Source of the DNA: an uncultured Nitrososphaerota archaeon
Lineage (GTDB): Archaea > Korarchaeota > Korarchaeia > Korarchaeales > Korarchaeaceae
Direction: 5' to 3'
Assembly (NCBI GenBank): GCA_964480775.1
Contig: CAYZRF010000011.1
Coordinates: 1-32,000 of the forward strand
DNA length: 32,000 nt
Each line of letters starts with the position of its first letter. Position 1 is the first letter of the stretch. Positions 4,782 to 25,045 of the stretch are shown piece after piece. The position numbers and the translations under genes are program-made. The notes beneath the pieces are model-generated. The model did not search any database, was not told the DNA's origin, and saw nothing but the letters and a program-made list of their open reading frames with translations.

Positions 4782-5054
4782 ATGAACAAGGATCAGGCAA
4801 TTGGTGGCGTAATTCTTGTTGTTTCCATAGTGGTCTGTGTGCTCTATGTCTATGCTATGTTTCTATCCAGCCCGGAAATAGCCATGCTGGTGCTAAAACT
4901 GACTGGCACGGTGGCTGTACTAGGTGTATTTGGTATCTTAGGTTGGATAGGCTATACTTTAGCAACGACCCCGCCCCCACCTCCAATAGAGGAGTTGGAA
5001 AAAGAGATTGAGAAGGAGTTAGAAGAAATAAAGGAAGAAGAAGAAAAAGCATAG
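4782..5054 (+). CDS. small two-TM membrane protein with poly-Pro hinge and acidic C-terminal tail
   Basis: Two hydrophobic helices (GGVILVVSIVVCVLYVYAMF; VAVLGVFGILGWIGYTLA), then TPPPPP and EELEKEIEKELEEIKEEEEKA. I recognise no family. Confidence 0.45.
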   Translation: MNKDQAIGGVILVVSIVVCVLYVYAMFLSSPEIAMLVLKLTGTVAVLGVFGILGWIGYTLATTPPPPPIEELEKEIEKELEEIKEEEEKA

Positions 5055-5075
5055 TAGCTTTAATGTGATGATTTC

Positions 5076-5346
5076 ATGAAGAAGGTGGCTATCACAGGAG
5101 GAGCTGGTTTCATAGGATATTGGACCGCAAAGCGTCTCGTAGGGGAGGGCTTCGAGGTAAAAATCTTAGATAACCTTCATACTGCCAGTATGATAGAGAA
5201 AGTAAGAGAGCTCGGTCTCCAAGTTATGAAGGTCGATGTTAGGAATTTAGATGCCTTGGAAAAGACATTACAAGGTTCAAACTGTGTTATACACCTGGCT
5301 GCTCTATTGGGTGTCGAAGAATCTCTGAAAAAAATCCTAAGCTCTA
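5076..5346 (+). pseudogene. 5' remnant of an NAD-dependent sugar epimerase/dehydratase (SDR) gene
   Basis: Rossmann start MKKVAITGGAGFIGYW...ILDNL...VIHLAALLGVEES matches only the first ~88 aa of ~310-aa epimerases. The rest of the 137-aa ORF (5347-5489) is antisense to the cysC 3' end and shows no SDR motifs (no YxxxK). Confidence 0.6.
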
Positions 5347-5883
5347 TCAGCTCTTTAGATAACCTAGCTCAACTAACTTGTTTAATATTCTCTTTGCACA
5401 CTCTTCAGGGCTATTTTTCTCGCTGTCGACTACGATCTCAGGGTTTTGAGGTTCCTCGTATACGTCCTGAATACCGGTCATATCCTTGATCTCCCCAGAA
5501 AGGGCTTTTTTGTAGAGACCTTTTGGATCCCTCTCTATGCATGTCTTTAGGGAACACTTAACGTATACCTCCACGAAATCACCAATTAGCTTGCGAGCAA
5601 ACTCCCTAGTTGATCGGTATGGAGATACAAAAGAAGCTATTACAACAACACCGTTCTTGGCTAGAAGATGGCTGACGTACGCTACTCTCTTGAGGTGGCG
5701 TTCTCTGTCCTCTTGACTGAATCCGGCCTCTGGACTAAGCCACTTTCGCACCTCATCCCCATCCAAGACCTCAACCTTAAGACCTCGCATCCTAAGCTCT
5801 CTTTCAAGCTCTCTTGCCACCGTAGTCTTTCCTGAAGCAGGAAGTCCAGTTAACCAAACCACAAAACCCTTCTCCTCAGGCAT
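5347..5883 (-). CDS. cysC: adenylylsulfate (APS) kinase
   Basis: GFVVWLTGLPASGKTT P-loop, FSQEDRERHLKRV and VIASFVSPY are APS-kinase hallmarks. The ORF track starts at TTG 5886. The ATG at 5883 overlaps the upstream stop as TGATG, which suggests translational coupling. Confidence 0.9.
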   Translation of the reverse strand: MPEEKGFVVWLTGLPASGKTTVARELERELRMRGLKVEVLDGDEVRKWLSPEAGFSQEDRERHLKRVAYVSHLLAKNGVVVIASFVSPYRSTREFARKLIGDFVEVYVKCSLKTCIERDPKGLYKKALSGEIKDMTGIQDVYEEPQNPEIVVDSEKNSPEECAKRILNKLVELGYLKS

Positions 5884-7277
5884 CAAAGCACCTCCGCTAA
5901 AGCCCTGCCTCTCATGTTCTCTGCTGGCTTAATCCCCATCAAGGCTAAGATTGTTGGAGCTATGTCGTAGATGGAAGCCTCAGCCTTTTCCGATTGAAAT
6001 CTTTCCTCGGGATCATAAATCAGGTATATGCCGTTCCAGTCGTGTACTGCATCATCGGGACCAGTGTCATTTTCTGGCAAGTACCAAGTACCGTGGCCAA
6101 CGGTGCCTGCGGACCTCCAGTTTAAGTCGTCGAAATAAACGATCATGTCTGGGGCATCTCCTCTAACCACTGGATAAAGATCAGTAGGTCTGAAAGTCAT
6201 GGTCTTCATTCTTCTTCCTTCAGGGTCCTTTACAGACTTCAGATCGTCTGCCAACTGCTCCAAAGTGGCTTCAAAGTCATCCTTACTAATCCTTCCCATG
6301 GGCTCTCTTCCTTTGAGATTGATGAAGATCCTCGCGTAGTAGCCTCCCCAACCCCAAGCTATCGTCTTTTCCCAGTTTATCCTTACCTTCTTAAGTTCGA
6401 TCTGCTGTTTAGGTCTATCCTCAAAGGAAAGATATCCGTTGTCAGCCAGCCATTCGTTAACAGCAAAAGCCCCTGTCATTGCCTTAGCTCCGTGATCCGA
6501 AACCACAAACACGGAAGCATTGCCAGCAGCCCTAACAAGTCTTCCAATCCCTTCGTCAAGTAGCCTGTAATAACGCTCAGCTACGTCCTCGAACTCGCTG
6601 TTTGGAACGTGTCTTGGATGGTTGGGATCGAAGAACTTCCAAAAAGCGTGGTGAAGCCTATCAAGACCTATCTCTACGTACCAGAAAAGGTCCCAAGCCT
6701 TTACCTTCACCAGATGTTCTGCAACCCTTAGGTGCTGCCTTGTCATTTCGAAAAGCCTTTTCACAAGGGGTCCCCTTTCTTCAATCCTAAACTCGACATC
6801 ATGGGTAAAAGACCCCTCTATTATCCTCTCAATCTCAAGACGAAGCCAAGGAGGATATGTGTAGCTCTTTGCGGTGCTTGGTGTGTGAAAGTCGCTTATC
6901 ATCCAACCGCTTATCTTTCTAGGGGGATATGATGGAGGAAAGGCTATGAGGAGGGACTTCTTCCCACCCTTAGCTATTATATCCCAGACAGCTGGCTCTT
7001 TAAGCTCTCTCGACGTAACTAAGTAGAACTCCCTATACTCTCCTGGCTTTCTATGCCTGAACCCGTACATCCCTAACTCTCCTGGTGTCTTGCTCGTGGC
7101 CATAACAGCCCATGCTGGAACAGTAATTGGTGGATGACAGCTCCTAAGAGAACCGTACTTAGCCCCCTCCATGAGCCTAGAAAGGTTTGGCATCTCCGAT
7201 AGGAATCTTTCGAAGGCAAGGGACGGGGGAGCTGAGTCTAAACCTATTACCATTACTCTATTCCTACCTTTTCCCAT
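5883..7277 (-). CDS. alkaline-phosphatase-superfamily enzyme, type I phosphodiesterase/nucleotide pyrophosphatase (NPP, PF01663-like)
   Basis: Metal and nucleophile motifs: VMVIGLDS (Asp), PPITVPAW...TSKTPGELG (Thr nucleophile region), VFVVSDHGA (Asp-His), DDAVHDWNGI (His). There is no sulfatase C/S-x-P-x-R motif (CHPPI). It sits between sat and cysC with a 4-nt gap and a 1-nt overlap. Confidence 0.7.
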   Translation of the reverse strand: MGKGRNRVMVIGLDSAPPSLAFERFLSEMPNLSRLMEGAKYGSLRSCHPPITVPAWAVMATSKTPGELGMYGFRHRKPGEYREFYLVTSRELKEPAVWDIIAKGGKKSLLIAFPPSYPPRKISGWMISDFHTPSTAKSYTYPPWLRLEIERIIEGSFTHDVEFRIEERGPLVKRLFEMTRQHLRVAEHLVKVKAWDLFWYVEIGLDRLHHAFWKFFDPNHPRHVPNSEFEDVAERYYRLLDEGIGRLVRAAGNASVFVVSDHGAKAMTGAFAVNEWLADNGYLSFEDRPKQQIELKKVRINWEKTIAWGWGGYYARIFINLKGREPMGRISKDDFEATLEQLADDLKSVKDPEGRRMKTMTFRPTDLYPVVRGDAPDMIVYFDDLNWRSAGTVGHGTWYLPENDTGPDDAVHDWNGIYLIYDPEERFQSEKAEASIYDIAPTILALMGIKPAENMRGRALAEVL

Positions 7278-7281
7278 CAGA

Positions 7282-8430
7282 TCACCTTACAAAAGGATCT
7301 TCGAAGCTTAAGATCACTTCAGCAATCTCTGGCCTCATCACCTCGGGAGGAGGCTTTTTCCTCTGCATAATAAGCTCCCTTATTTTGGTTCCGCTGAACC
7401 TTATCCTATCCGATTCTGAGTGAGGACACGTCTTCTCGTTAACTAAGCCCTCGCACTTATGGCAGTAGAAGAACTCTCTGAAGAAAAGAGGAGATATTCC
7501 AAGATCAGGGAACTCCTTAAAGATCTCTTGGGCTGCATATGGCGGGTAAAAGTTGCCAACCCCTGCGTGATCCCTTCCAACGATAAAGTGGGTGCATCCA
7601 AAGTTCTTCCTCATTATGGCGTGGTGAATTGCTTCTCTAGGCCCTGCATAACGCATCTCATAACGAAGAATCGCAAGGACAGCAGTATCCCTTGGATAGT
7701 AGTTTTCTATGAGCACGCGGTAGGCTTCCAATATTACATCATCCCTGAAATCTCCTGGTTTTTTCTTACCTATTACTGGATTGACGAAGAGGCCATCAAC
7801 AAGCGCTAGAGCTGTCTTTTGAATGGCTTCATGCCCTCTATGCGGCGCATTTCTTGTTTGAAAGCCAACAACAGTCTTCCAGCCTTTTTCCTTGAAGAGA
7901 ACCCTGGTCTCCTTCGGCCAGAGGGTATACCTCTCGTGCGGGTTCGGAGCAGAGTTTAACAGAGTTATTCTCCCCCCCAAGAGCATGTCTTTCATCTCCT
8001 CGATCTTCCTAACGCCCGGATGTCTTTTGTCCTCAGTACCAAACACTGCTTTGGCAAACTTCTTCTTATCATATTGGTAAATCTCCTCAGCTTCAATTGT
8101 GGCAATTGGAACTTCATGGAGCTTAAGCAGCACCTCTTCACCCTCTACTATGTTCCTTGTCTCCTCTTTCTTAATGTCAAGTAGTATCGGCATGGTCCAG
8201 GGCACATCATTACTTAGCCTCATCTCCTTCAAACAGCTCTCCAGATCTTCTCTAAGCATGAACCCTTCTAAAGGGCTGTACACTCCCTTTGCAATGTTTT
8301 CTACTTCTACAGCCTTCTCTAGGTTTATCGCTATACTTTGAAACTCCGATGCTTCAGCAAATATTCTATCCCTCTTTGCTTCGCTTGCAACTCTGCTCAC
8401 GAGTCTGCCTCCATGAGGTCGGGAAACCAT
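7282..8430 (-). CDS. sat: sulfate adenylyltransferase (ATP sulfurylase)
   Basis: N-terminal RPHGGRL, the active-site motif GFQTRNAPHRGHE, and VGRDHAGVG. Confidence 0.9.
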   Translation of the reverse strand: MVSRPHGGRLVSRVASEAKRDRIFAEASEFQSIAINLEKAVEVENIAKGVYSPLEGFMLREDLESCLKEMRLSNDVPWTMPILLDIKKEETRNIVEGEEVLLKLHEVPIATIEAEEIYQYDKKKFAKAVFGTEDKRHPGVRKIEEMKDMLLGGRITLLNSAPNPHERYTLWPKETRVLFKEKGWKTVVGFQTRNAPHRGHEAIQKTALALVDGLFVNPVIGKKKPGDFRDDVILEAYRVLIENYYPRDTAVLAILRYEMRYAGPREAIHHAIMRKNFGCTHFIVGRDHAGVGNFYPPYAAQEIFKEFPDLGISPLFFREFFYCHKCEGLVNEKTCPHSESDRIRFSGTKIRELIMQRKKPPPEVMRPEIAEVILSFEDPFVR

Positions 8431-8439
8431 AAAACCACC

Positions 8440-8667
8440 CTACTCAAGGTAACCCAGGGCTCTTAGTTTGCGCAATATGCGCTCTTTGTCATTCTTAGTG
8501 AAGTCGAGCTTTGAGTCCTCGTAGGAGGAAATAAGTTCTCTGAGGACATATGTGACGTAGTCGCTGACAGAAGAGAAGCCCGTACCTTCAATCATCTTCT
8601 TGGCCCTTTCGTAGAGAGTGGCTGGGATGGATACCGTAGTATAACGTCCTTTTCTATTGGATCCCAT
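8440..8667 (-). CDS. ribbon-helix-helix (CopG-like) small DNA-binding protein, first gene of the sat operon
   Basis: TTVSIPATLYERAKKMIEGTGFSSVSDYVTYVLRELIS aligns with the ORF at 2841-3050. C-terminal KLRALGYLE. It lies 9 nt upstream of sat. Confidence 0.65.
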   Translation of the reverse strand: MGSNRKGRYTTVSIPATLYERAKKMIEGTGFSSVSDYVTYVLRELISSYEDSKLDFTKNDKERILRKLRALGYLE

Positions 8668-8688
8668 CGCTAGGAATGTGCTTTGTTA

Positions 8689-8708
8689 GGATAATTAAAA
8701 TATATTTC
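8689..8708 (-). promoter_or_regulatory. candidate TATA box/BRE for the RHH-sat-NPP-cysC operon
   Basis: The minus strand reads AATATATTTTAATTAT, centred about 25-35 nt upstream of ATG 8667. This is consistent with a leaderless or short-leader archaeal mRNA. Confidence 0.35.
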
Positions 8709-8874
8709 TTCGTAATTAAGGACTCTAAGCAGGAGAACCAGAAGATTCATTGAATCTTTTTTTTGAGAGCAAATATATCACGGAAGGACGTGGTTACTAA
8801 CAGGACAGCGAATATTGGGCTCATAGAATATGAAAGTCCTACTTATTTTTGCTCGAAAAATACAATGCAAAAAT

Positions 8875-10992: not shown

Positions 10993-11778
10993 TTAAATCC
11001 TCCCAAGGCTCTTGTATACCTCGCTCTCTAGTTCATCTAAGATCATTTCTCTTATTTTCAGGAATTTTTCGCCTGTATAGCTTCTAGGTCTTGGTATTTC
11101 GATTGAAAACTCTTTTTTGACCCTTCCTGGTCGAGCTGTCATCACGCAGACTCTGTCTGCAAGATAGGTCGCCTCAATTACTGAGTGAGTCACGAACACG
11201 ACGGTTTTCTTCTCCCTTTCCCATATCTTCAATAATTCTCCCTGCATGACCTTCCTTGTCTGTGCGTCTAAGGCTCCAAATGGCTCGTCCATCAGTAGGA
11301 TCTCCGGATTATTCACAAGAGCTCTGGCCAGAGCTACCCTTTGCTTCATTCCACCCGAAAGTTCATGGGGATATCTGTCTTCAAAACCTGCCAAGCCAAC
11401 TAGTTCAATGTACCTCATCGCTTTGTCGATCCTCTCCTCTTTTGGTGTCCCCTTGAGTTCCAACCCAAAAGTTACGTTCTGAAGCACGGTTCTCCAAGGA
11501 AACAGGGCGTACTCTTGAAAGATCATGCATCTTTCTGGGCCGGGACCCCGTATCGCCTCTCCATCAAGATAGACAACACCCTTTGTTGGCTTTTCCAGCC
11601 CAGCGACTATCCTAAGGAAAGTCGATTTTCCACACCCACTCGGACCAACAAGACATAAAAACTCATTTGGATATACCTTAAGGCTCATATCTTTCAAGGC
11701 AATTATTTTTGCTGATTCGCTTCCATAGATCTTAGTTACAGAATCAGCAACAAGTTTCGGTTTTACCATTGACCACAC
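10993..11778 (-). CDS. ABC transporter ATP-binding protein, NitT/TauT (SsuB/TauB/ThiZ-like) family
   Basis: Walker [28 protein letters not shown], signature [15 protein letters not shown], Walker [12 protein letters not shown]. The start is GTG 11778 or ATG 11769. Confidence 0.85.
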
Positions 11779-11779
11779 C

Positions 11780-12595
11780 TTACACCGTAGAGACTTTTAG
11801 CCCCTTTCTCCACTTCAAGAGCCTTTCTTCGATCTTACCAAAGACGAACTTCTCTATGAAAAGCATAGTTGCCGAGAGCGTCACAATTGTGGCGAAAACG
11901 ATATCAGTTCTTGCAATCCCTCTGGCCATGATTAGTTGATATCCCAAACCACCCCTTACTCCAACCATCTCGGCTGCGAGGTCCACTCTCCAAGAAAATC
12001 CCACAGCTAGCCTGAATCCAGTTAGAATGCTGGGAAAAGCCCCAGGAAGTATTACTTTCAAGAAGACATCCTTTTTTCTTGCACCTAAAGTCTGAGCTGC
12101 TTGGATTAAAGTTAGATCAACACTTCTTACTCCTTCCATCGTATTTAGGAGTATGGGAACAACGGCGGAGACTGTTATTATGAATATCGACGATCTATTA
12201 CCGGAACCAAACCATATCAGAGCTAATGGTATCCAAGCCACTCCGGGAATTGGCTGTATGATCCTTATCCAAGGACTTATAACCCGATTCAGACCAGACG
12301 ACAGTTCGGCTAATATTCCTAAAGGAACTCCAATTATGGCTGCAATGCAAAAACCAACGATGATCCTGTAAAAACTCAATGAAAGCGTGTAGAAGAGGTT
12401 GTGGAATATCGAAACTTCCTTCATCGTGGTTAGGTAATACAAAGTCTTTAGAACATCAATGGGGGAAGGTAAAATGAGTTTGGCTGTTTTTGGAGGTAAT
12501 TGATAGAATAGGTTGGTCATAGAAGCTAGTTGCCATATTCCAAGGCCAGCCAGCACAGAAATCATGCCTAACGTTCGATCTCTCCACTTTTTCAT
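11780..12595 (-). CDS. ABC transporter permease, NitT/TauT (SsuC/TauC-like) family
   Basis: Six predicted hydrophobic spans. EAA-loop [28 protein letters not shown]. Confidence 0.8.
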
Positions 12596-12641
12596 GAGCT
12601 ACACCCACATAATATTAGAAACGGAAAGCGATGCTTTATCA

Positions 12642-13634
12642 TCACCCTTTGATAAACGATAAATCGAATAACTCATCTTCCTCTGGGAGCTCTTCTATTA
12701 TTCCGAGCTGCTTTGCGAACTGAAGGATTTCATAGCAATCCTGAACGTTCACATTATAGTTGAATTCAATCCTTCTACGGGCACTTTCTACTATGGATAC
12801 GTCTAGATTCATTATCTGAGCTATGAGCTCATTTGCCTCTTTTGGGTTCTCATTTATCCAGTCTACTGTATCAATGTAGACCTCAAGGAATTTTCTAAGG
12901 AGATCTGGGTGGTTTTCTATGAAAGAGGTTCTGGCCACCACAACATTCACAGGATATATTCTTCCTTCATGATTTTCTCTCCACCATTGTGCTACATCGA
13001 AAACTATCACGTATTTACCTGGGTAGTTTATTTCTGCTTGAGACGCAAAGGGTTCCCAAGTCATCATTGCATCGAATTCCTTAGACACGAACACGAGTTG
13101 AGGCATATCAGCTGGCGCTATCCCAACCCTTGTGTCGATATCTTTTTGCCAGTCTAGCGGAGGATTCGCCACAACTTTCGTTAACAGTGTCGAGTAAAGC
13201 GTGTGGGTGACTGATCCAATTCGAGGAGTACAAACCGACTTCCCCTTTAGGTCATTAACTGTCTCTATACCCGAATCAGCTCTCGCAATAAGCACGTGTC
13301 CGCCTCCGTTAGCCCCTGCAACGACCTTGAGATCTATTCCTGAAGCAAACCACTTTGTCGAAGGTACTATCCCTAAAAGAGCAATTTGGATCTCTTCTCC
13401 TGAAAAGGCTTCCATTAGCGTTGGACCATCTGGATAAACAATTATCTCCACATTTAGCCCCGCTTGTTCGAAGGATCCTTTGAATTCAGCAATTTTTGGC
13501 GTTATAGTTCCTAAGGCAAGTATCATCCCCACTTTTATAGGCTTTTCCTCCTTAGTGCGCCTTTGAGTTGCTATGAATGCTCCGAGTAAGAGCAAAAGGA
13601 TAATAATTGCCGAAAATACTGCTTTTTTCTCCAT
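12642..13634 (-). CDS. ABC transporter substrate-binding protein, NMT1/THI5-like (SsuA/TauA/ThiY-type)
   Basis: N-terminal membrane anchor/signal (AVFSAIIILLLLLGAFIA), a type-II periplasmic-binding-protein-like body, and the first position in the ABC operon. Confidence 0.65.
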   Translation of the reverse strand: MEKKAVFSAIIILLLLLGAFIATQRRTKEEKPIKVGMILALGTITPKIAEFKGSFEQAGLNVEIIVYPDGPTLMEAFSGEEIQIALLGIVPSTKWFASGIDLKVVAGANGGGHVLIARADSGIETVNDLKGKSVCTPRIGSVTHTLYSTLLTKVVANPPLDWQKDIDTRVGIAPADMPQLVFVSKEFDAMMTWEPFASQAEINYPGKYVIVFDVAQWWRENHEGRIYPVNVVVARTSFIENHPDLLRKFLEVYIDTVDWINENPKEANELIAQIMNLDVSIVESARRRIEFNYNVNVQDCYEILQFAKQLGIIEELPEEDELFDLSFIKG

Positions 13635-13800: not shown

Positions 13801-14328
13801 ATGATGAGCGAAGGAGAGTCGATATTACGTAAGATTGTAGAATCGGATAGGGCGTTTTGTCAAGCATTTTTGGAGTATTTGAAGAAAAATGGAATAAGTA
13901 TAAAGGACTTCAGCAGAATGGCCAATCTACCAACTAGCACGCTGTATAAAATCACCTCTGGGAGGGTTAAGACGATAAGATCAAACACTCTTAGAAAGAT
14001 CATCAAAACGATAAGAGAATTAGAGGAAAAGGAAATAAGAAAGGATGCTATTGCCATAATAACTACCAGAACCGCAATCGAGCTAACGGAAAAAGAGATA
14101 AGCATTGATGGCAAGAAGTACGTGATCCTCGAATATCCAGCAGATTCAATAGAAGAAGAAATAATTCAAGGAATAAGGGCAGAAAAAGCCGGAGCTAAGG
14201 GCATAATTTGCGGTCCAATTGCGGCTACAACGCTGGAAAAGGTTGTTTCCATTCCTATCGCAACGATAAGGTTTGAAGAAGGACCTCTAAGGAACGCCAT
14301 CGATAGGCTCCTAAAAAGGATCACGTAG
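13801..14328 (+). CDS. HTH (XRE-like) transcriptional regulator with uncharacterised C-terminal alpha/beta domain
   Basis: HTH segment ISIKDFSRMANLPTSTLYKITSG. GGTGAT SD at 13790-13795. It is the only plus-strand gene between 5347 and 23868, it is divergent from the ABC operon, and its 3' end overlaps the convergent decarboxylase gene by 8 nt. Confidence 0.55.
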   Translation: MMSEGESILRKIVESDRAFCQAFLEYLKKNGISIKDFSRMANLPTSTLYKITSGRVKTIRSNTLRKIIKTIRELEEKEIRKDAIAIITTRTAIELTEKEISIDGKKYVILEYPADSIEEEIIQGIRAEKAGAKGIICGPIAATTLEKVVSIPIATIRFEEGPLRNAIDRLLKRIT

Positions 14329-15520
14329 TGACGAGCTGTCCTCTTGCTTTTTTGATTGCTTTCATAAATCTTTCCTTAATTTCCGTATTTTCCATAGGAA
14401 TCGTTGGAACCTTTTCGTTTCCAGGTTTTAGTATGGTATGAATGAAGAATGGCCCGTCGTTGTTCAAGCTATGATCCAACGCTTCAATTAGCTTGTCCTG
14501 GTTCTCAGCAATGAGAATGTTTGATCTTGGAATGCCATATGAAACGGCAAGGGCGCTTAAGTTTAGTCCTTCAAATGTATAGATGGGATAGTTTCGTGTC
14601 GATCCATAGACACCATTATCGAGCACTATCAAAATTAAGTTCTTCGGCCTTTGGTCTGCAACAATGGTCAGAGAACCTGGATTCATAAGCAGCCCTCCAT
14701 CTCCCTCAAAACATACAATTTTTTCGCCTATGTCCTCGGTAGTTAGGGCCAAACCAAGTGCTAACATATATGTTTGACCGAGAGACGAAGTCAGGTAGAA
14801 GTTTCGCTCCCTATCCCTTATCTGATAAAGTTCTCTGCTTGGAAGACCTATGTTCGAAACGACGAACTCATCCTTTATCCTCTTCATTACAGTTGATATG
14901 GCCTCATATCTTCTCATTTCTGCTTTAACTTTAATTTCAGGGAAAAAAGTGCCGTTTAATTGTCTAATAATGCTTTTCCACTTTTTCTCCTCAGTCATCA
15001 TCCTTCCAAATTCTGGTCTTATCGTTAATGCAACAGTGTAGCCTTTTTCATATTCTTTCAATAAGTCATCTGCCCTCTCAAGATCAGATCTTTTTTCTAT
15101 GGAACACTGCTTAATTCCAGGCATATCTAAGATTTTTTTCGTTTGTCTTCCCATCGGCTTCTGTGCTCTTATCTTCTCGCCCTCTATCCCTCTGTGGGTA
15201 ATGATGTATAGATTTGGAAACCTGTATGAACCCTCTAGGTGACTGTTTAACACAAGTAGTTGTCCTACCATATTGCCTAGGCCTTGATTCTGAATTATCA
15301 TTGCCGTTTTTCTTCCACCCAAGTAAGCCCCAGCACTTAGTGCTACTCCACTTTCTTCTCTTACAAGAGGTACATGGGTTAGTTCGCCAAAACTTCTAAT
15401 TCTTCTAATCAAATCAACGTTATACGAGCCTGGAAGAGTGGAAAAGAAGCTAAAACCATGTTTTATACACAGTTCAAAGATCTCTTCGTAGATTTCGTGC
15501 AATTTATTCACCTTAAACAA
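14321..15520 (-). CDS. fused ThDP-dependent decarboxylase, sulfopyruvate (ComDE)/phosphonopyruvate decarboxylase family
   Basis: The N-half is ComD-like: REESGVALSAGAYLGGRKTAMIIQNQGLGN and THRGIEGEKIRAQKPMG. The C-half is ComE-like, with the ThDP motif GDGGLLMNPGSL...LDNGVYGSTRN. The start is TTG 15520 or GTG 15511. Confidence 0.7.
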   Translation of the reverse strand: MFKVNKLHEIYEEIFELCIKHGFSFFSTLPGSYNVDLIRRIRSFGELTHVPLVREESGVALSAGAYLGGRKTAMIIQNQGLGNMVGQLLVLNSHLEGSYRFPNLYIITHRGIEGEKIRAQKPMGRQTKKILDMPGIKQCSIEKRSDLERADDLLKEYEKGYTVALTIRPEFGRMMTEEKKWKSIIRQLNGTFFPEIKVKAEMRRYEAISTVMKRIKDEFVVSNIGLPSRELYQIRDRERNFYLTSSLGQTYMLALGLALTTEDIGEKIVCFEGDGGLLMNPGSLTIVADQRPKNLILIVLDNGVYGSTRNYPIYTFEGLNLSALAVSYGIPRSNILIAENQDKLIEALDHSLNNDGPFFIHTILKPGNEKVPTIPMENTEIKERFMKAIKKARGQLVTT

Positions 15521-15558: not shown

Positions 15559-16710
15559 CTATAGGAACAAGTCCATTATAAAAGCACTTATTTTCACCAT
15601 CTCAGGTCCAGGATCTATTAATGAAATGTCAGTTACTGTCTTTTTACTAAAGAATAGCTTGATGAAGCGTTTGAAATTGTCAAGTTTTCCTGGAGCTTCT
15701 AAAATATAATTCATATCATATGGAAAGACCCAAAGGAAGGTTAGGTTCTTTTCATAGTCAAAAACTGGGTCGACATCTCCTTCTAGCGCCATCTTGTATA
15801 ATAGGTAAGGAAAATCTATCCCTGCCTTTATTGAAAGCTCTAAAGTTCCCCAGAATTTTGGATTAATTTCCATTAACCTAGGCTTACCTTCGGCATCCAA
15901 TTTGAACTCTACTTGGGCTAAACCATGCCAATTCAGTTTCTTCATAAGTTTTATAGCCATCTCCCTTAGCTTCTCATCACTTATAGTTTCATTAACGATA
16001 CCGACTCCTCCTCTCGGAGGCCATGTCCAAACTCTTCTTTGAACAAGCGCCGCTCTAGGTTCTCCCTGATTAAAAAGAACGCAAACATCTCTAATTTCTC
16101 CAGGTATGTATTCTTGTATCATAGGAAGCTTTTGTTCTTCAATGAGCGAGTCGCAAGGTAGACTTTCTATCTCCTTGTATTTTTCCAAGAGTTCAGTCTT
16201 TGATCTAACAAGTCTGACCCCCTTATCAACCCCTGAACCTTTCCTTCTCTTTATTATAACGGGATAACTCACTTTCTCGGAGATTTCGAGGACATCCTCT
16301 TTAGACTTTGGAAAATAAGTTTTTGGAACTGGAACACCAACTTCTTCCGCTATTCTCAGTGCTTGTGATTTATCATGTGCCTTTACCAAGGTGTCATAAT
16401 CAGCTACTGGAACGTTTGTGAAGTTCAAGAGTTTATCTTTGTAATAGGAGACTGGCACAGTAGTATCAACGCCCACGGGAAATAACAAGTCGATTTTTTC
16501 CTCTTTGATTATTTTCAGCAGACTATTGACAAATTTAATTGCGTTTTTTTTGGGAGGATAGTATATCCTTCGACTCCTGCAATATCTTGAATAAAACGAT
16601 AGAGCAACCTTTTTGTGCGAAGCCGTCGTGATTTTGATACCCCTTTTCCCTAAGGACCGGACAGCTGCTAGAGTGTTCTTGTAACTAGCATTTGTGATCA
16701 GTACGCTCAT
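15559..16710 (-). CDS. ATP-grasp family ligase (uncharacterised specificity)
   Basis: Pre-ATP-grasp N-domain, then YPVIIKRRKGSGVDKGVRLV, MIQEYIPGEIRDVCVL and AQVEFKLDAEGKPRLMEINPKFWG (Mg/ATP-binding E-x-N). It lies 38 nt upstream of the decarboxylase. Confidence 0.65.
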   Translation of the reverse strand: MSVLITNASYKNTLAAVRSLGKRGIKITTASHKKVALSFYSRYCRSRRIYYPPKKNAIKFVNSLLKIIKEEKIDLLFPVGVDTTVPVSYYKDKLLNFTNVPVADYDTLVKAHDKSQALRIAEEVGVPVPKTYFPKSKEDVLEISEKVSYPVIIKRRKGSGVDKGVRLVRSKTELLEKYKEIESLPCDSLIEEQKLPMIQEYIPGEIRDVCVLFNQGEPRAALVQRRVWTWPPRGGVGIVNETISDEKLREMAIKLMKKLNWHGLAQVEFKLDAEGKPRLMEINPKFWGTLELSIKAGIDFPYLLYKMALEGDVDPVFDYEKNLTFLWVFPYDMNYILEAPGKLDNFKRFIKLFFSKKTVTDISLIDPGPEMVKISAFIMDLFL

Positions 16711-19141: not shown

Positions 19142-19900
19142 TTAGATGTTTAACATAAAAAATCTCCTTAAATCTTTCAATAAACCGAAATCATAAGCTC
19201 CTCCTCTTTCATCGACAACAACAACTCTAAAGGAAGAGAGCTCAATGCCTTTCAGTAGGGGAGAAAAGGGAAGAGGCTTAATGCTAACATCGGCTCCTGG
19301 TGCGAGAGGTGAAATAGCTGGTATGATGATGAAGTGCGAGTTTCCCACTTTTCCAGCTAAATGACATTTGAATTTGGTTTTAGCACCTATTTCATCCCTA
19401 AAAGTTACCGCTGGATGCTCATGTCCCATGATTATAACCCTTGCTCTTTTGAGAACCTCATTTGGAACTTCTTTGTGGCCATGAGCAAAAAAATAATCCT
19501 TGATGAGAAGGTAAGGATCATAAAAAGGTACTTCCCTTCTTTTTAGTATGGGAATTAGGTAATTATCATGGTTTCCTCTGACAACGCGAAGTTCTACTCT
19601 CTCTTGAAGTGTATCGAGTAGGTCAAGCACCTCCACCCATTCTTGCCTACTTGCTCCACCAAACTCGTGTTTCACGTCTCCAACGATGATTAAAAGCTCA
19701 GGATCGAGCTCCTCCAAAAGATATAGTATCTTTTGCTTTATTTTTGGATATTGGCTCTTGGGAAGGTGTATTCCCGATTCAAGAAGAGCCTCCTCATAGC
19801 CAATATGAAGATCAGCTATCGCCAAGGCGTTGATTTCATTAATGAAAACCCCGTAGGGAACTGCTTCAACCCCTTCTACTATTTCCATCCTATGTAGCAT
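19142..19900 (-). CDS. calcineurin-like metallophosphoesterase, Lhr-associated MPE type
   Basis: Motifs IADLHIGYE, VGDVKHEF, GNHDN, GHEHP. The start overlaps the Lhr 3' end by 11 nt. Confidence 0.8.
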   Translation of the reverse strand: MLHRMEIVEGVEAVPYGVFINEINALAIADLHIGYEEALLESGIHLPKSQYPKIKQKILYLLEELDPELLIIVGDVKHEFGGASRQEWVEVLDLLDTLQERVELRVVRGNHDNYLIPILKRREVPFYDPYLLIKDYFFAHGHKEVPNEVLKRARVIIMGHEHPAVTFRDEIGAKTKFKCHLAGKVGNSHFIIIPAISPLAPGADVSIKPLPFSPLLKGIELSSFRVVVVDERGGAYDFGLLKDLRRFFMLNI

Positions 19901-22538
19901 AAGATCTCCTCTCTATAATCTTCATAACCATGTGATGAAGCCTTGCAAGCATCTCCCTCTTACTCTCCATTAGGACGATGTCACTCATGCCCTGAAGCAC
20001 TATGTTATGGGAGAAGGGAGACGGAACAGTTGTTGGCCTAAGCATGACTACTTGTATATCTCCTTTGCGTATCTTCCTAAGCACTTCCATAGCGTTCCTT
20101 ACATCCATAAAGTCCTCCAAGATCTCCCTAAATGTCTCCTTTACCATCGGGAACTCCCTTAATTCCCTAACTGCTCCTAAGATCTTCTTTGAGTTAAACT
20201 GCCTCCTTCTTATACTCGTTTCTATTCCTTTGTAACGTCTGAGAAGCATCAAACCCCTTGTTGCCACATGTCTGAACCTTCTTTCAAAGAGTTCAGTCCT
20301 CTCTATGGCTTTCTTAAGTATAGAAGGTAAGTCTTCTGGCTTTATATCCATTAAGTAGGAGTGAGAAACCTGAACGCCAGGAGGATATACGACGGCAAAT
20401 CCATGGTCTCCAACGATTATCCCTAAGTTCCTCCTCACCCTCCTTCCAGCTAGATAGGCAACGGCTCTTGAGAGGGCATCGTTAACCCGTCTCCCGAAGA
20501 GAGCGTGATAGACCACATACTTCTTGCCATCTTCATCAACGAAGACCTCAACCAAAAGTACCCTATCTGAAGGATATTTTCTTACCCCTCTGGATTTCAG
20601 GTACAGCCACTCCTCTGTAAAGTATTGGAGAATTGCGTTTGCTATGTTATGATCTGCTTTGCAATTCTTCATTATCCAATTCACAGTTTTATGGCCCTTA
20701 ACTCCCTTCTCCAGCCACTCGAACATCTTTCCCCTGAACCTTGAGATCTCCAGGGCCAGATCGTAGCTTAAAGGCAGCATCTCGCTGAACCAGCTGGGAA
20801 CAGTTGGTTTCTCATCGTAGGCAGGCATGACCACAGCTGTAAAGCCCCTCACCGTCTTGACGAACTCGTAAACCTTTCCTCCAAGGACAAACCTATCTCC
20901 AGGCATCAATCGCTCAAGGAACTCCTCCTCTATGCTGCCAAGCTTCTTACCACCCAGGGTTCTTACCCTTACCCTTACCTCATCAGGAATCGTACCGACG
21001 TTTTGGGAGTAAATGGCCCTTGCAAGCTTGCCCCTCCTTCCGAAAACCCCCTCCTCGGGGTCATACCATATCTTCCCGTAAACCTTGTACATCTCCATCT
21101 GGGAGTAGGCGCCAGACAGGTATCTGAGCACTCTTTCAAAGTCCTTCCTATCGAGATCTTTGTATGGATATGCCCTTCTAACGAGTTCATATGCTTCTTC
21201 TACGTTCCACTTCTGCTCAATTGCCATGCCAGCTATATGCTGTGCCAGAACGTCTAGGGCATTTCTTGGCATGTGGGCCCTGTCCAAGTGCCCTGACATC
21301 GCCTCCTTCAGCATTATTGCGACTTCAACAGCATCGTCCCTATCTGAGCAGATGAAGACTCCTTTGCTCACCTCCCCAAGCCTGTGACCAGCCCTCCCAA
21401 CCCTCTGTATCGCTCGAGTTACCGATTTGGGGGAGCCAAGCTGAACAACGAGATCTATGTAACCTATGTCTATCCCTAGTTCCAAGCTTGTTGAGCTCAC
21501 GATTGCCCTCAACTCTCCGCTCTTAAGCTTCTCCTCCACGTCATGCCTTACGCCCCTTGAAAGCGAGCCATGATGGGCAGCAACATCGTCCTTCTCTATC
21601 TCCTCCACGTAAAGTGGGAGGAGCTGTCTCAGCCTAAATGCAACCCTTTCAGCCCCGCTTCTGGTGTTGGTGAAGATGAGAGTTGTCCTGTGTTTCCTAA
21701 TTAGGTCGCAGAGGAACTTGTACATCTCCTCGTTTATCACATTAAAAGGGGTGTAAATCAGATCCGAGACAGGAGCCATCACCTGCAGATCCATTTTCTT
21801 GGCGTAGGTCGTGTCGACGATGAGGCAATCCCTTGGTTTCCCGTCTTTATAGCCAACTAAGAATTTTGCAACCTCTTCAAGCGGGTTTATCGTTGCAGAA
21901 AGGCCTATCCTTACGAAAGGTCTGCCTACAAGGTGCTCCAGTCTCTCTAGAGAGAGACTAAGGTGAACGCCCCTCTTGCTTTCTACCAAGCTGTGTATCT
22001 CGTCCACTATGACCCATCTAAGATTCCTGAACTTCTCCCTAAACTTAGGAGCTACTAACGTTATGGCTAGGGTTTCTGGGGTGGTGATGAGTATGTGAGG
22101 GGGCTTCCTCAGCATCTTCTGCCTCTCACTCGTGCTAGTATCCCCCGTCCTCACAGCATGCCTTATCTCAGGAATTTCAATCCCCTTCTTCTTCGCAAGC
22201 TCACGTATCTCTTCCAACGGCACCTTCAGGTTTCTGTAGATGTCATTGTCCAGAGCTCTTAGAGGGGAGACGTAGACGGCATACACGAAATCTTCCAGCT
22301 CACCTTTCCGAGCCATAGAAAGGAGCTCGCTTATTATTCCGATAAAAGCGGTCAGAGTTTTTCCTGAGCCAGTAGGGCTTGAGACAAGCACATTATTCCC
22401 TTCATGTATCGGAATTACTGCATACCTCTGAGGGGGAGTCAAGTCCTTGAAGTGGGATTCGAACCACTCGGAGACGAGCGGATCGAGCACAGAGAGCACT
22501 TCTTCCTTAGTATACTGTCTGGTTGCCCTCCTTATCAA
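19890..22538 (-). CDS. lhr: Lhr-type (Lhr-core) SF2 DEAD/DEAH-box helicase
   Basis: Motif I SSPTGSGKT, motif II VIVDEIHSL, motif III GLSATI, motif VI QRVGRAGH, then the long WH/DEAD_assoc-like C-terminal half typical of Lhr. The start is TTG 22538 (stop two codons upstream), with an alternative GTG 13 codons in. Confidence 0.85.
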   Translation of the reverse strand: MIRRATRQYTKEEVLSVLDPLVSEWFESHFKDLTPPQRYAVIPIHEGNNVLVSSPTGSGKTLTAFIGIISELLSMARKGELEDFVYAVYVSPLRALDNDIYRNLKVPLEEIRELAKKKGIEIPEIRHAVRTGDTSTSERQKMLRKPPHILITTPETLAITLVAPKFREKFRNLRWVIVDEIHSLVESKRGVHLSLSLERLEHLVGRPFVRIGLSATINPLEEVAKFLVGYKDGKPRDCLIVDTTYAKKMDLQVMAPVSDLIYTPFNVINEEMYKFLCDLIRKHRTTLIFTNTRSGAERVAFRLRQLLPLYVEEIEKDDVAAHHGSLSRGVRHDVEEKLKSGELRAIVSSTSLELGIDIGYIDLVVQLGSPKSVTRAIQRVGRAGHRLGEVSKGVFICSDRDDAVEVAIMLKEAMSGHLDRAHMPRNALDVLAQHIAGMAIEQKWNVEEAYELVRRAYPYKDLDRKDFERVLRYLSGAYSQMEMYKVYGKIWYDPEEGVFGRRGKLARAIYSQNVGTIPDEVRVRVRTLGGKKLGSIEEEFLERLMPGDRFVLGGKVYEFVKTVRGFTAVVMPAYDEKPTVPSWFSEMLPLSYDLALEISRFRGKMFEWLEKGVKGHKTVNWIMKNCKADHNIANAILQYFTEEWLYLKSRGVRKYPSDRVLLVEVFVDEDGKKYVVYHALFGRRVNDALSRAVAYLAGRRVRRNLGIIVGDHGFAVVYPPGVQVSHSYLMDIKPEDLPSILKKAIERTELFERRFRHVATRGLMLLRRYKGIETSIRRRQFNSKKILGAVRELREFPMVKETFREILEDFMDVRNAMEVLRKIRKGDIQVVMLRPTTVPSPFSHNIVLQGMSDIVLMESKREMLARLHHMVMKIIERRSYAT

Positions 22539-22584: not shown

Positions 22585-23868
22585 TCACTTTAACAGCTCG
22601 GACTCGTACTTTTTCAGGTACTCTACCGCATCAGAGATGTTTCTGAACAGGGATTTCACTTCTTCCACGTCCTTTGCCGATATCTTGTCCCTTCCCTCGG
22701 CCCTTGCCCTGACACCAGCTATACTCAATATCTGTACAGCGTGTCGGAGCGAGGTAGCACCTCCTATCTCCTTTAGAAGGGCTAAGGCCTCGTCATCAGC
22801 CTTGATATCCTCTTCCTTCATTCTTATCCTTAGAATCTCCTCTATCTCGTCCGGCTTATACTTCTCAGTGGTTATGATGACCGTCCTGTCAAGCAGGTCT
22901 AGAGGAAGTCCGAAGGGCGCCTTCTCATTTGTTCCCCTTATTGTTGTTATGCCCCTGTTCGTCGCCATGACTATTATCGGCACTAGCTCCCCTTCCATGG
23001 CCCTCGTAAGGAAGCTCAAAGCCTCGATGTCCATCATGTGGACATTGTCTATGAAAAGGACCCCTGGTATTATCTCGGCCCTCCTTTGCTCAACCCACTC
23101 CTTGACCTGCTGGTCAACGGCGGCCCTTACCTCAGGGTCGATCTCCTTCTCCGCTGTTCCTCCGAAAAGCAGTGAGAAGAATCCACCACCCCTCCTCTTC
23201 ATGAAGATCTCGTCTAGGTCTGCTAGGGTGAGGGTATAGACGAACTCCTTCTTCTTAAGGACGGGACCGCTGGGCCTTGGAACTACCTCCGCCTCTCCCA
23301 CATCGTACCTCTTTCCTACTTTCTCAGAGACGCCAACCCTAGATATCCTTCCAGTATCGGCGTCTATCTGAATTACGTCGCCTTCCCTTATCCCGTTTTG
23401 CACGACGGTGTAGGCAACTGACTGTCCAGCTTCGATTGTCTTCTTCTCATCTTTCGTCTCAAGTGTTATCCTCACGCTTTCAGGGACCTTCTGATAAGGG
23501 TTGTAGGGGTTTGAGGTCCACCTGACGTGTATATCCGTTACCTCGCCCTCATAGATATCTCTCATTTCCCTTATCCTCACGCCTATTGCCTGTCTTATTG
23601 CATCCATGAGCACATCAGTCTTCTTCCTTTCTGCGCTGTATATCTCAGAACCAGTTATAGCTATGAAAGGCACATCTCTTCCAAGCTCTCTTGCCATTGC
23701 TACCGCAATCGCAGTTTTTCCCGTTCCTGGAGGGCCAGCTAGCAAGACTGCCTTCCCTGCGAGCTTCCCCTCTTTTGCCATGTTAACTATGAGGCCAGCT
23801 GCCTCCCTAGCCCTTGTCTGTCCGACCATCCCGTCAGCTACCCTGAGTGCCTTCATGTTCTCATCCAA
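22585..23868 (-). CDS. TIP49 / RuvB-like (Pontin-Reptin family) AAA+ ATPase with OB-fold domain II insertion
   Basis: End-to-end collinearity with eukaryotic RUVBL1/2: VGQTRAREAAG, Walker A LLAGPPGTGKT, the domain II insert, Walker B region VLFIDNVHMMD, sensor 1 MATNRG, PLDLLDR and sensor 2 TSLRHAVQ. The coordinates follow the ORF track (TTG 23868). The conserved motif RRIGAHSHIRGLGLD is encoded in frame upstream, up to 23952, so the true 5' end is probably 23937-23952. Confidence 0.85.
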   Translation of the reverse strand: MDENMKALRVADGMVGQTRAREAAGLIVNMAKEGKLAGKAVLLAGPPGTGKTAIAVAMARELGRDVPFIAITGSEIYSAERKKTDVLMDAIRQAIGVRIREMRDIYEGEVTDIHVRWTSNPYNPYQKVPESVRITLETKDEKKTIEAGQSVAYTVVQNGIREGDVIQIDADTGRISRVGVSEKVGKRYDVGEAEVVPRPSGPVLKKKEFVYTLTLADLDEIFMKRRGGGFFSLLFGGTAEKEIDPEVRAAVDQQVKEWVEQRRAEIIPGVLFIDNVHMMDIEALSFLTRAMEGELVPIIVMATNRGITTIRGTNEKAPFGLPLDLLDRTVIITTEKYKPDEIEEILRIRMKEEDIKADDEALALLKEIGGATSLRHAVQILSIAGVRARAEGRDKISAKDVEEVKSLFRNISDAVEYLKKYESELLK

Positions 23869-24047: not shown

Positions 24048-24629
24048 ATGGATTATGAGGAACTTATTACTCCAAAGGAGGCAAGGGCAATACTAAGGGT
24101 TAGCAACAAGACTCTTTGGTCGTGGCATAAAAAAGGGATAATCAGGACCGTTAGACTCCCAAGTGGAAGATTGCGTTACTACAAGAGCGATATAGAAGCC
24201 ATTGTAAGGGGGAAGAAGAGGGAAAATCTGTTAGAAAAGCTAAGAAACGCTCTTGTACATGAAGAAAACGTGTTAATAGCATATCTATACGGATCAAGAG
24301 CCAGGGGAGATTTTCAAGAGGAAAGCGATGTAGACGTTGCCGTTCTAGTAAAGGATCCACCAACTCCAGAGGAAAATCCATTCTATGAGACCGAGCTTTC
24401 GCTTAGGCTAAGTAAAGCAGTTGGAAAAGATGTAGAGGTCAGACTCCTTAACGATAAGCCCCTAATTTTCCTTTGCCAAGTTCTAAAACATGGAAAACTA
24501 ATAATTTCCAAGGATGAAAAGACTAGAGTAAAATTCGAAGCATATACTTTGGACAGATGCTTTGATTTCAAGCCAATCCTCGATTCATATAACAGGATGA
24601 GAGAAAGGAGGATAGAGGCATGGAAATAG
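24048..24629 (+). CDS. MNT-type nucleotidyltransferase antitoxin fused to an N-terminal excisionase/MerR-like HTH
   Basis: N-terminus LITPKEARAILRVSNKTLWSWHKKGIIRTVRLPSGRLRYYKSDIEAIV (HTH_17-like). Minimal NTase motif LYGSRARGDFQEESDVDVAVLV. 10-nt overlap with the downstream HEPN gene. Confidence 0.8.
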   Translation: MDYEELITPKEARAILRVSNKTLWSWHKKGIIRTVRLPSGRLRYYKSDIEAIVRGKKRENLLEKLRNALVHEENVLIAYLYGSRARGDFQEESDVDVAVLVKDPPTPEENPFYETELSLRLSKAVGKDVEVRLLNDKPLIFLCQVLKHGKLIISKDEKTRVKFEAYTLDRCFDFKPILDSYNRMRERRIEAWK

Positions 24630-25045
24630 ATAGAGAACTGATTCACCTCAGGATAGACTTAATTGAGAGAAACCTGAAGTTGTTGGAAGAGATAGCATCC
24701 GAAGGATACGAAAGCTTCGAGAGGAGTTACAGGGACATAATGGCATCCAAACACGCCTTGCTAGAGTCGATAGAAGCTTGTATTGATATCGCTAACCACA
24801 TAATAGCTGTAAAGAGGTATAGAAGGCCAAAAGATTACGTCGATATATTCAAGATCTTGGAAGAAGAGAAGATAATAGACAAGGACCTTTCCGAAAGGCT
24901 ACAAAGGATGGCTAAGTTCAGAAACATCTTAGTCCACAGATATACAGAGATAGAAACTCGTAAGCTTTATACCATAATGACTAAGGATGTCAAAGACATT
25001 GTTTCCTTCGTGAAGACCATACTTGAATTGATTAGAAGAAAGTAA
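24620..25045 (+). CDS. HEPN (DUF86) toxin of a HEPN/MNT module
   Basis: R-x4-H motif in KFRNILVHRY. About 140 aa, all-helical, and cognate to the upstream MNT gene. Confidence 0.8.
   Translation: MEIDRELIHLRIDLIERNLKLLEEIASEGYESFERSYRDIMASKHALLESIEACIDIANHIIAVKRYRRPKDYVDIFKILEEEKIIDKDLSERLQRMAKFRNILVHRYTEIETRKLYTIMTKDVKDIVSFVKTILELIRRK

Follow-up and report, generated by a model that had tools for sequence, protein, structure and literature searches.

A sulfate-activation operon encoding a probable pyrophosphatase of the TON_1705 type in an uncultured Nitrososphaerota archaeon

The first 32,000 nucleotides (nt) of contig CAYZRF010000011.1 (assembly GCA_964480775.1) of an uncultured Nitrososphaerota archaeon, referred to here as the window, contain an operon of four minus-strand genes. 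In order, they encode a putative ribbon-helix-helix (RHH) regulator, ATP sulfurylase (Sat), an enzyme of the alkaline phosphatase (AP) superfamily that matches PF01663, and adenosine 5'-phosphosulfate (APS) kinase (CysC) (Table 1). The list of open reading frames (ORFs) and the junctions, read directly from the sequence, agree with the tight packing described in an initial annotation of this DNA. The stop codon of the RHH gene (TAG) is followed by 9 nt (ggtggtttt) and the ATG of sat, and the stop codon of sat (TGA) by 4 nt (tctg) and the ATG of the PF01663 gene. The stop codon of the latter shares a TGATG overlap with the ATG of cysC at position 5883, while an alternative TTG start at 5886 would yield a kinase of 179 amino acids (aa). 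The AT-rich region of 207 nt ahead of the RHH gene is a putative operon promoter and includes a TATA-like stretch, aaatatattttaattat, at approximately 8707-8691, which is 24-40 nt before the ATG of the RHH gene.

Two of the four gene products are readily identified. Sat scores 314 bits on PF01747, contains a PUA_2 domain, reaches 539 bits with NF003166 (cut-off 387) and its translation displays the motif QTRNAPHRGHE. For CysC, the scores are 204 bits with PF01583 and 226 bits with TIGR00455 (cut-off 139). Both assignments made in the initial annotation are thus upheld by Pfam and NCBIfam, as is, together with the conservation of the gene trio presented below, its view of the operon as a module for the synthesis of 3'-phosphoadenosine 5'-phosphosulfate (PAPS). 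The small protein encoded by the first gene had been annotated as RHH. The ORF of 75 aa stands, and the fold is plausible from remote similarity: the Pfam scan returned no significant match for the protein itself, a profile of 12 homologues searched against the Protein Data Bank (PDB) found the RHH domain of NikR as its best match (E=0.11), and RHH_1 matched five of these 12 homologues below threshold (best E=0.0036). Among the 80 loci compared below, 16-21 have a homologue of this gene upstream of sat, as do Pyrococcus yayanosii, Thermococcus onnurineus and Methanocaldococcus bathoardescens; the P. yayanosii homologue has been named a putative copG factor (PMC8268124).

The third gene product, a protein of 464 aa, scores 139.2 bits on PF01663 (cut-off 23). 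In an alignment of 26 sequences, variation is absent or almost absent at the nucleophile T52 and the metal ligands D14, D206, H210, D261, H262 and H412, which confirms the intact Thr nucleophile and metal-ligand motifs noticed initially, and a profile search aligns T52 with the nucleophile Thr of the Xanthomonas nucleotide pyrophosphatase/phosphodiesterase (NPP). The same alignment shows approximately 90 invariant positions, seven Arg among them, and the clade-specific blocks GFRHRK, WGWGGYYAR and ENDxGPDDAVH; across phyla, family members retain at least 45-50% identity. Expressed as GFRHR, W[GA]WGGY[YH][AS]R and ENDxGPDD[AS]xH, these motifs are shared by the window protein with 64-70 of the 73 clade members. 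At least 7,300 database proteins match the enzyme at E<=1e-10, and the best 120 matches are all approximately 460 aa long, at least 49% identical and carry generic names only. Searching PDB sequences with the single sequence gave nothing at E<1, and the profile search recovered only remote fragments of NPPs, sulfatases and cofactor-independent phosphoglycerate mutase (Xanthomonas NPP, E=2e-4). An AlphaFold (AF2) model built from the alignment reaches a predicted local distance difference test score (pLDDT) of 92.6 and a predicted template modelling score (pTM) of 0.92. In Foldseek, the nearest folds to this model are human ENPP1/3 and the Xanthomonas enzyme (E of about 1e-17, TM-score 0.55-0.69, 13-16% identity), so that the modelled fold is of the NPP type. 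The window enzyme shares with these NPPs (2GSN for Xanthomonas) the fold, the bimetal ligand set, the Thr nucleophile and PF01663; it differs from them by the low identity, large insertions, a predicted cytoplasmic location without signal peptide, the Arg-rich clade motifs and, as far as tables in citing papers report it for the clade, inorganic pyrophosphate (PPi) as substrate instead of nucleotide diesters. The protein has no Pfam match to the sulfotransferase families PF00685 and PF13469, and its AP/NPP fold is neither of the FIG nor of the DHH-DHHA1 type found in phosphatases for 3'-phosphoadenosine 5'-phosphate (PAP).

The initial annotation had proposed comparing the sat-PF01663-cysC neighbourhood among archaeal genomes, and this arrangement proved to be conserved. 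A scan of species-representative genomes located at least 586 loci with the AP gene, of which 80 were retrieved, approximately 60 from archaea and 20 from bacterial metagenome-assembled genomes (MAGs). The archaeal loci belong to Nitrososphaerota, Bathyarchaeia, Promethearchaeota and other Asgard archaea, Archaeoglobi, Thermoplasmata, Hadarchaeota and Thermoproteota, the bacterial ones to Aminicenantes, Eubacteriales, Anaerolineae, Omnitrophota and Armatimonadota. With Sat and CysC of the window as probes, most of the 80 loci showed the order sat-(X)-AP-cysC on one strand. Among the 48 loci with adequate flanks, sat was found in 37, cysC in 38, both in 31 and neither in four, which places sat and/or cysC beside the AP gene in 44. 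Domain-level analysis additionally revealed fusions with either partner, namely a Sat-AP ORF of 863 aa in three Anaerolineae genomes and an AP-CysC ORF of 646 aa in one Nitrosopumilaceae genome; a further AP-CysC ORF in a Desulfocucumis genome is truncated by the contig end. Because the trio is conserved and fusions exist with both partners, these gene arrangements provide solid support for a functional tie of the embedded enzyme to sulfate activation. When every ORF near the AP gene in the 80 loci was clustered without preselection, additional recurrent neighbours emerged: an epimerase/dehydratase of the short-chain dehydrogenase/reductase (SDR) family in 29 loci, a TauE/SafE permease in seven to nine, UDP-glucose dehydrogenase in nine and a flippase in seven. 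Approximately 15 loci (14-15 in the clustering) contain a DHH-family gene, always between sat and the AP gene, whose product is a homologue of the crystallised PAP phosphatase MtPAPP of Methanothermococcus thermolithotrophicus (8a8k, E=8e-31).

Although the embedded enzyme had been described initially as uncharacterised, full-length homologues have been published from Thermococcales. PYCH_17550 of P. yayanosii (P0159), which was reached by querying with an Archaeoglobi orthologue and then identified from its context (73 aa-Sat-DHH-PF01663-APS kinase-TauE), aligns with the window protein at 50% identity along the full length (E=6e-169). A cluster look-up led to ACJ17195.1 (P0276) of T. onnurineus NA1, which is 46% identical to the window protein across an alignment of 463 residues (E=9e-156). 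It is identified by synteny as TON_1705, since its context (75 aa-Sat-DHH-PF01663-APS kinase-TauE) matches the published order TON_1707/1706/1705/1704 (PMC4463584). The 75-aa proteins upstream in the window and in T. onnurineus are homologous as well. Jin et al. (2021, PMC8268124) described a five-gene cluster of P. yayanosii that consists of the putative copG factor, ATP sulfurylase, a DHH-family PAP phosphatase (pApase), PYCH_17550 and APS kinase, with a TauE gene adjacent; they noted this cluster likewise in Ferroglobus, Aciduliprofundum, Aeropyrum and Ignicoccus. The DHH pApase was characterised and crystallised in that study, while PYCH_17550 was named a 'type I phosphodiesterase/nucleotide pyrophosphatase' and proposed to degrade PPi; it rises along with sat and cysC under high pressure (PMC8268124). 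For T. onnurineus, a paper that refers to Lee et al. (2009, J Bacteriol 191:3415) lists TON_1704 as APS kinase, TON_1705 as pyrophosphatase (PPase), TON_1706 as PAP phosphatase and TON_1707 as ATP sulfurylase (PMC4463584). A second paper, citing the same study, gives TON_1705 as an inorganic PPase with a Km of 18.8 uM, a kcat of 2.1 s-1 and a pH optimum of 9.5 (PMC9653972, Table 1). TON_1705 and PYCH_17550 (476/470 aa) fall into one length class with the window enzyme and share with it the motifs GFRHR, WGWGGYY[AS]R and ENDTGPDDA[VN]H, the position of the gene on one strand between sat (or sat/DHH) and cysC, and a location downstream of an RHH-like gene of 73-75 aa. M. bathoardescens displays the same gene order, its AP gene being flanked on one strand by sat (or DHH) and cysC. 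A difference is that the Thermococcales clusters contain a DHH PAP phosphatase and a TauE permease, both of which are missing from the window operon. The locus is therefore largely explained by a published sulfate-activation cluster and represents a TON_1705-type operon in a new lineage, which makes its own importance modest. The family is of wider interest: it counts over 7,000 proteins in databases, was located at 586 or more genome loci, also occurs fused to Sat or CysC and has no solved structure. Mostly anaerobic organisms carry it, among them Asgard archaea, Bathyarchaeia, Nitrososphaerota, Archaeoglobi, Thermoplasmata, Aminicenantes and Anaerolineae, a spread far broader than the Thermococcales literature suggests. 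A comparative paper on sulfate assimilation in anaerobic methanotrophic archaea (ANME) does not mention the gene family.

The role that best accounts for these observations, and that is considered probable from homology and gene context, is that of a high-affinity PPase which pulls the unfavourable Sat reaction. Sat would convert sulfate and ATP into APS and PPi, against a very unfavourable equilibrium. The enzyme of 464 aa would hydrolyse PPi, presumably via Thr52 and the bimetal site, and thereby drive Sat forward, while CysC would withdraw APS on the other side by producing PAPS and ADP from APS and ATP. The RHH-like protein would probably regulate the operon, and PAPS would be used elsewhere, most likely for the sulfation of cell-surface glycans. 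Support for the PPase function comes foremost from TON_1705, a syntenic homologue with 46% identity whose PPase activity is published, according to the papers cited above. The tabulated Km is approximately 60-fold below that of Ton1914, the family-I PPase of T. onnurineus (kcat 3e4 s-1, Km 1.1 mM; PMC9653972), which fits a high-affinity PPi scavenger. In a reconstituted archaeal assay, PPi removal was rate-limiting for the ATP sulfurylase/APS kinase couple in vitro (Jespersen et al., PMC10322725), and this also argues for the PPase function, as does the joint rise of PYCH_17550 with sat and cysC under high pressure. The Sat-AP and AP-CysC fusions point in the same direction, given the precedent of fusions between ATP sulfurylase and an enzyme named simply 'inorganic pyrophosphatase' in stramenopiles and haptophytes, which follow a like logic of coupling PPi hydrolysis to Sat/APS kinase (PMC2275785). 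The extreme conservation and the number of invariant Arg residues fit a substrate that is a small, universal polyanion and not a range of diverse acceptors, and both PAP hydrolysis and sulfotransfer can be assigned to other genes of the same loci. The fused pyrophosphatase domain of the eukaryotic proteins, which we take to be the canonical soluble family-I enzyme, would be non-homologous to the AP/NPP-fold domain of the window family.

Several points weigh against a PPase function. The PPase assignment of TON_1705 is taken from citing papers, and the activity of the window protein is in turn inferred from TON_1705. Dedicated PPases exceed the tabulated kcat of 2.1 s-1 by orders of magnitude, and T. 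onnurineus already possesses a family-I PPase that is very fast. Promiscuous activities are a known trait of AP-superfamily enzymes. In combination with the low kcat, this promiscuity implies that PPi hydrolysis could be a side activity. Four Archaeoglobaceae loci (L034, L035, L052 and L071) have the order DHH-AP-cysC with no sat within 8 kb. There, the AP gene tracks the PAPS branch and not the PPi-producing enzyme, which is mildly awkward for a pure helper of Sat. Furthermore, a 2024 review of PPases does not list this type of enzyme.

Among the alternatives, the one that survives best, although it is judged unlikely, has the enzyme act on a sulfonucleotide, either by hydrolysing PAP or by editing excess APS or PAPS, so that it would replace CysQ or serve as a homeostatic valve. 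Nucleotide phosphoanhydrides and diesters are what the NPP fold is built to handle, and since the window and most of the 80 loci have no adjacent DHH PAP phosphatase, PAP removal is not accounted for locally. The association with cysC instead of sat in Archaeoglobaceae and the low kcat tabulated for the PPase reaction (PMC9653972) would agree with such a role. A PAP phosphatase was in fact the first assignment considered for the AP enzyme, and it was down-weighted because the adjoining DHH gene of approximately 15 loci matches the crystallised MtPAPP. Wherever this DHH gene is present, the AP gene lies directly beside it, which argues against redundancy of the two products. PAP-specific activity has been demonstrated for DHH proteins (PMC8268124, PMC10322725), and characterised examples of the DHH PAP phosphatase come from three archaea (PMC8268124, PMC10322725, PMC4463584). 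Hydrolysis of APS or PAPS within the operon that produces them would be futile, and the study behind the citing papers is listed as having reported TON_1705 as PPase and TON_1706 as PAP phosphatase. The PAP/APS-clearing hydrolase suggested in the initial annotation is accordingly disfavoured. A related variant, to which a slim chance is given, holds that the slow PPi hydrolysis of TON_1705 is a side activity and that the actual task concerns a sulfonucleotide, for example through sulfo-Thr52 transfer or relay or through editing of APS/PAPS. If true, this would reveal a new kind of AP-superfamily enzyme on which many archaea and several bacterial phyla centre their sulfate activation.

Even less probable is the other role that had been put forward initially, a non-canonical sulfuryl or adenylyl transferase that would pass a group from PAPS or APS via covalent Thr52 to a glycan or lipid acceptor. 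The accompanying statement that the sulfotransferase of archaeal glycan sulfation is not known is out of date, since the sulfatase-like AP-superfamily proteins VNG1056C and VNG1057C were identified in 2025 as N-glycan sulfotransferases of Halobacterium salinarum, in a paper that does not discuss the sulfate donor (PMC11980604). These proteins offer a precedent by analogy for sulfotransfer in the AP superfamily, but from a different branch. They resemble the window enzyme in superfamily, in their link to sulfate chemistry and archaeal glycans and, for VNG1057C, in a cytosolic location as predicted for the window protein. By their description as sulfatase-like (arylsulfatase/LtaS-like branch), they are set apart from PF01663, they are encoded in an N-glycosylation cluster and not between sat and cysC, and their sulfotransfer was shown genetically. 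A transferase role would further agree with the frequent glycan genes near the module (SDR, UDP-glucose dehydrogenase, flippase), with the speculation of Jespersen et al. on a non-canonical sulfotransferase in methanogens (PMC10322725) and with the failure to find a canonical sulfotransferase. For the latter, jackhmmer with the T. onnurineus sulfotransferase, run over every ORF of the window and of the 80 loci, detected none, although divergent ones could escape this single seed. Against a transferase stand the extreme conservation and the fixed slot of the enzyme in the activation module, fusions included, whatever its neighbours are, a pattern unlike that of acceptor-specific transferases. 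The enzyme also coexists with a canonical PF00685 sulfotransferase, encoded a few kb from the module, in T. onnurineus, and the PPase activity of TON_1705 is published, as cited in the later papers.

A better candidate for sulfotransfer is a second, more variable PF01663 protein. This long paralogue of 518-558 aa, which is 26-30% identical to the window protein, recurs beside the PAPS module. It retains the metal ligands and a Thr/Ser nucleophile, lacks the three signature motifs of the short clade and carries an insertion and a C-terminal extension. It occurs in approximately 10 of the 80 loci; beyond the copies listed in Table 1, it was noted in L009, L031, L033, L040 (three copies), L045, L046, L047, L064 and L070, in L064 inside the operon, and none is present in the window. 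In the cultured species P. yayanosii (PYCH_17590-like) and M. bathoardescens, it follows the flippase and fills the slot within the glycan cluster that the canonical sulfotransferase occupies in T. onnurineus. This slot swap with the canonical enzyme and the known AP-superfamily sulfotransferases of H. salinarum make the long paralogue a candidate non-canonical PAPS sulfotransferase, and a concrete one for the enzyme on which Jespersen et al. speculated. The last alternative, a generic phosphodiesterase placed between sat and cysC by chance, has next to nothing in its favour. For it speaks that Pfam alone yields just a generic family name; the linkage is kept across archaeal and bacterial phyla, with fusions to both partners, which already refutes it.

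The most likely use of the PAPS that the operon would supply is glycan sulfation, because the module repeatedly abuts glycan genes. Its neighbours comprise a flippase, the canonical PF00685 sulfotransferase, an SDR and DegT in T. onnurineus, and a flippase, the long PF01663 paralogue, a family 2 glycosyltransferase (GT2) and DegT in P. yayanosii and M. bathoardescens. Alternatively, PAPS may enter assimilation through a reductase encoded elsewhere. Within the window, as had been stated initially, ORFs of at least 110 aa gave no match to PAPS/APS reductase, sulfite reductase, a PF00685/PF13469 sulfotransferase or CysQ in Pfam and NCBIfam scans, and the glycan-related neighbours reported at the same time (ManC, GT2, a deacetylase-like gene and two ATP-grasp genes) are all present.

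Table 1. Positions of the operon genes, of other features of the window and of long PF01663 paralogues in comparison loci (prefix L).
Feature	Coordinates	Strand	Basis or remark
Putative RHH (CopG-like) regulator, first operon gene	8440..8667	-	75-aa ORF; homologues upstream of sat elsewhere
ATP sulfurylase (Sat)	7282..8430	-	382 aa; PF01747 + PUA_2, NF003166, QTRNAPHRGHE motif
AP/NPP-superfamily enzyme, TON_1705/PYCH_17550 clade	5883..7277	-	464 aa; PF01663, clade motifs
APS kinase (CysC)	5347..5883	-	178 aa; PF01583 + TIGR00455
AT-rich intergenic region upstream of RHH gene	8668..8874	-	207 nt; sequence read; putative operon promoter
Truncated SDR epimerase/dehydratase	5076-5489	+	N-terminal 87-88 residues match family; abuts cysC
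Three-gene ATP-binding cassette (ABC) transporter, SsuA/TauA/Sao (aliphatic sulfonate/nitrate) type	10993-13634	-	all matches below equivalog cut-offs
Fused thiamine pyrophosphate (TPP) enzyme	14321-15520	-	399 aa; below all decarboxylase cut-offs
ATP-grasp gene adjoining TPP enzyme gene	15559-16710		
Lhr-type helicase overlapping calcineurin-like phosphoesterase (SbcD-related) gene	19142-22538	-	
Archaeal TIP49/RuvB-like AAA+ protein	22585-23868	-	PF06068, 437 bits; adjoins Lhr-type helicase
MNT-type nucleotidyltransferase (N-terminal helix-turn-helix) and HepT ribonuclease	24048-25045	+	overlapping toxin-antitoxin pair
Threonine-synthase-like pyridoxal phosphate (PLP) enzyme fused to C-terminal PadR/HxlR winged-helix domain	26945-28381	+	478 aa
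Long PF01663 paralogue	L081:10386-12023	-	
Long PF01663 paralogue	L084:12271-13887	-	
Long PF01663 paralogue	L083:1-60	-	

Further neighbours that are absent from the initial annotation are the truncated SDR epimerase, the SsuA-type ABC transporter and a gene resembling sulfopyruvate/phosphonopyruvate decarboxylase. The SDR ORF continues, out of frame, into the 3' end of cysC, and a search of the window for the rest of the gene found nothing. The closest relative, a Nitrososphaerota MAG (L001/L083), has an AP protein 87% identical to that of the window and shares synteny with it on the ManC side. In this relative, a TauE permease and an ATPase of 410-413 aa lie between cysC and an intact SDR gene of 304 aa. 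Since the SDR gene of the window is cut at approximately residue 88 and abuts cysC, the comparison with the intact arrangement implies that the window has lost approximately 3 kb between cysC and the SDR gene. The four operon genes are intact despite the adjoining deletion. In L083, a pair of genes for a 92-aa membrane protein and an SDR is duplicated, with one copy on each side of the module. The GC content of the operon is 0.44-0.48 (positions 5000-8000 of the window) in comparison to 0.40-0.42 in the flanking glycan genes. Together with the patchy spread across archaea and bacteria, this higher value suggests that the sulfate-activation module is laterally mobile.

The SsuA-type transporter is located 2.3 kb upstream of the operon and may matter for sulfur supply. 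Scores of the fused TPP enzyme are 193 bits for phosphonopyruvate decarboxylase (cut-off 312) and 106 and 192 bits for the alpha and beta subunits of sulfopyruvate decarboxylase (cut-offs 148/221); the window contains neither phosphoenolpyruvate (PEP) mutase nor ComA/B/C. The window also gave no hits in a tRNA scan. The fusion of a PLP enzyme to a PadR-type domain was examined as a possible cysteate synthase linked to the sulfopyruvate-decarboxylase-like gene. This assignment was rejected because the cysteate synthase score is only 42 bits; the best NCBIfam matches of the protein are threonine synthase models, at 305 bits and below their cut-offs.

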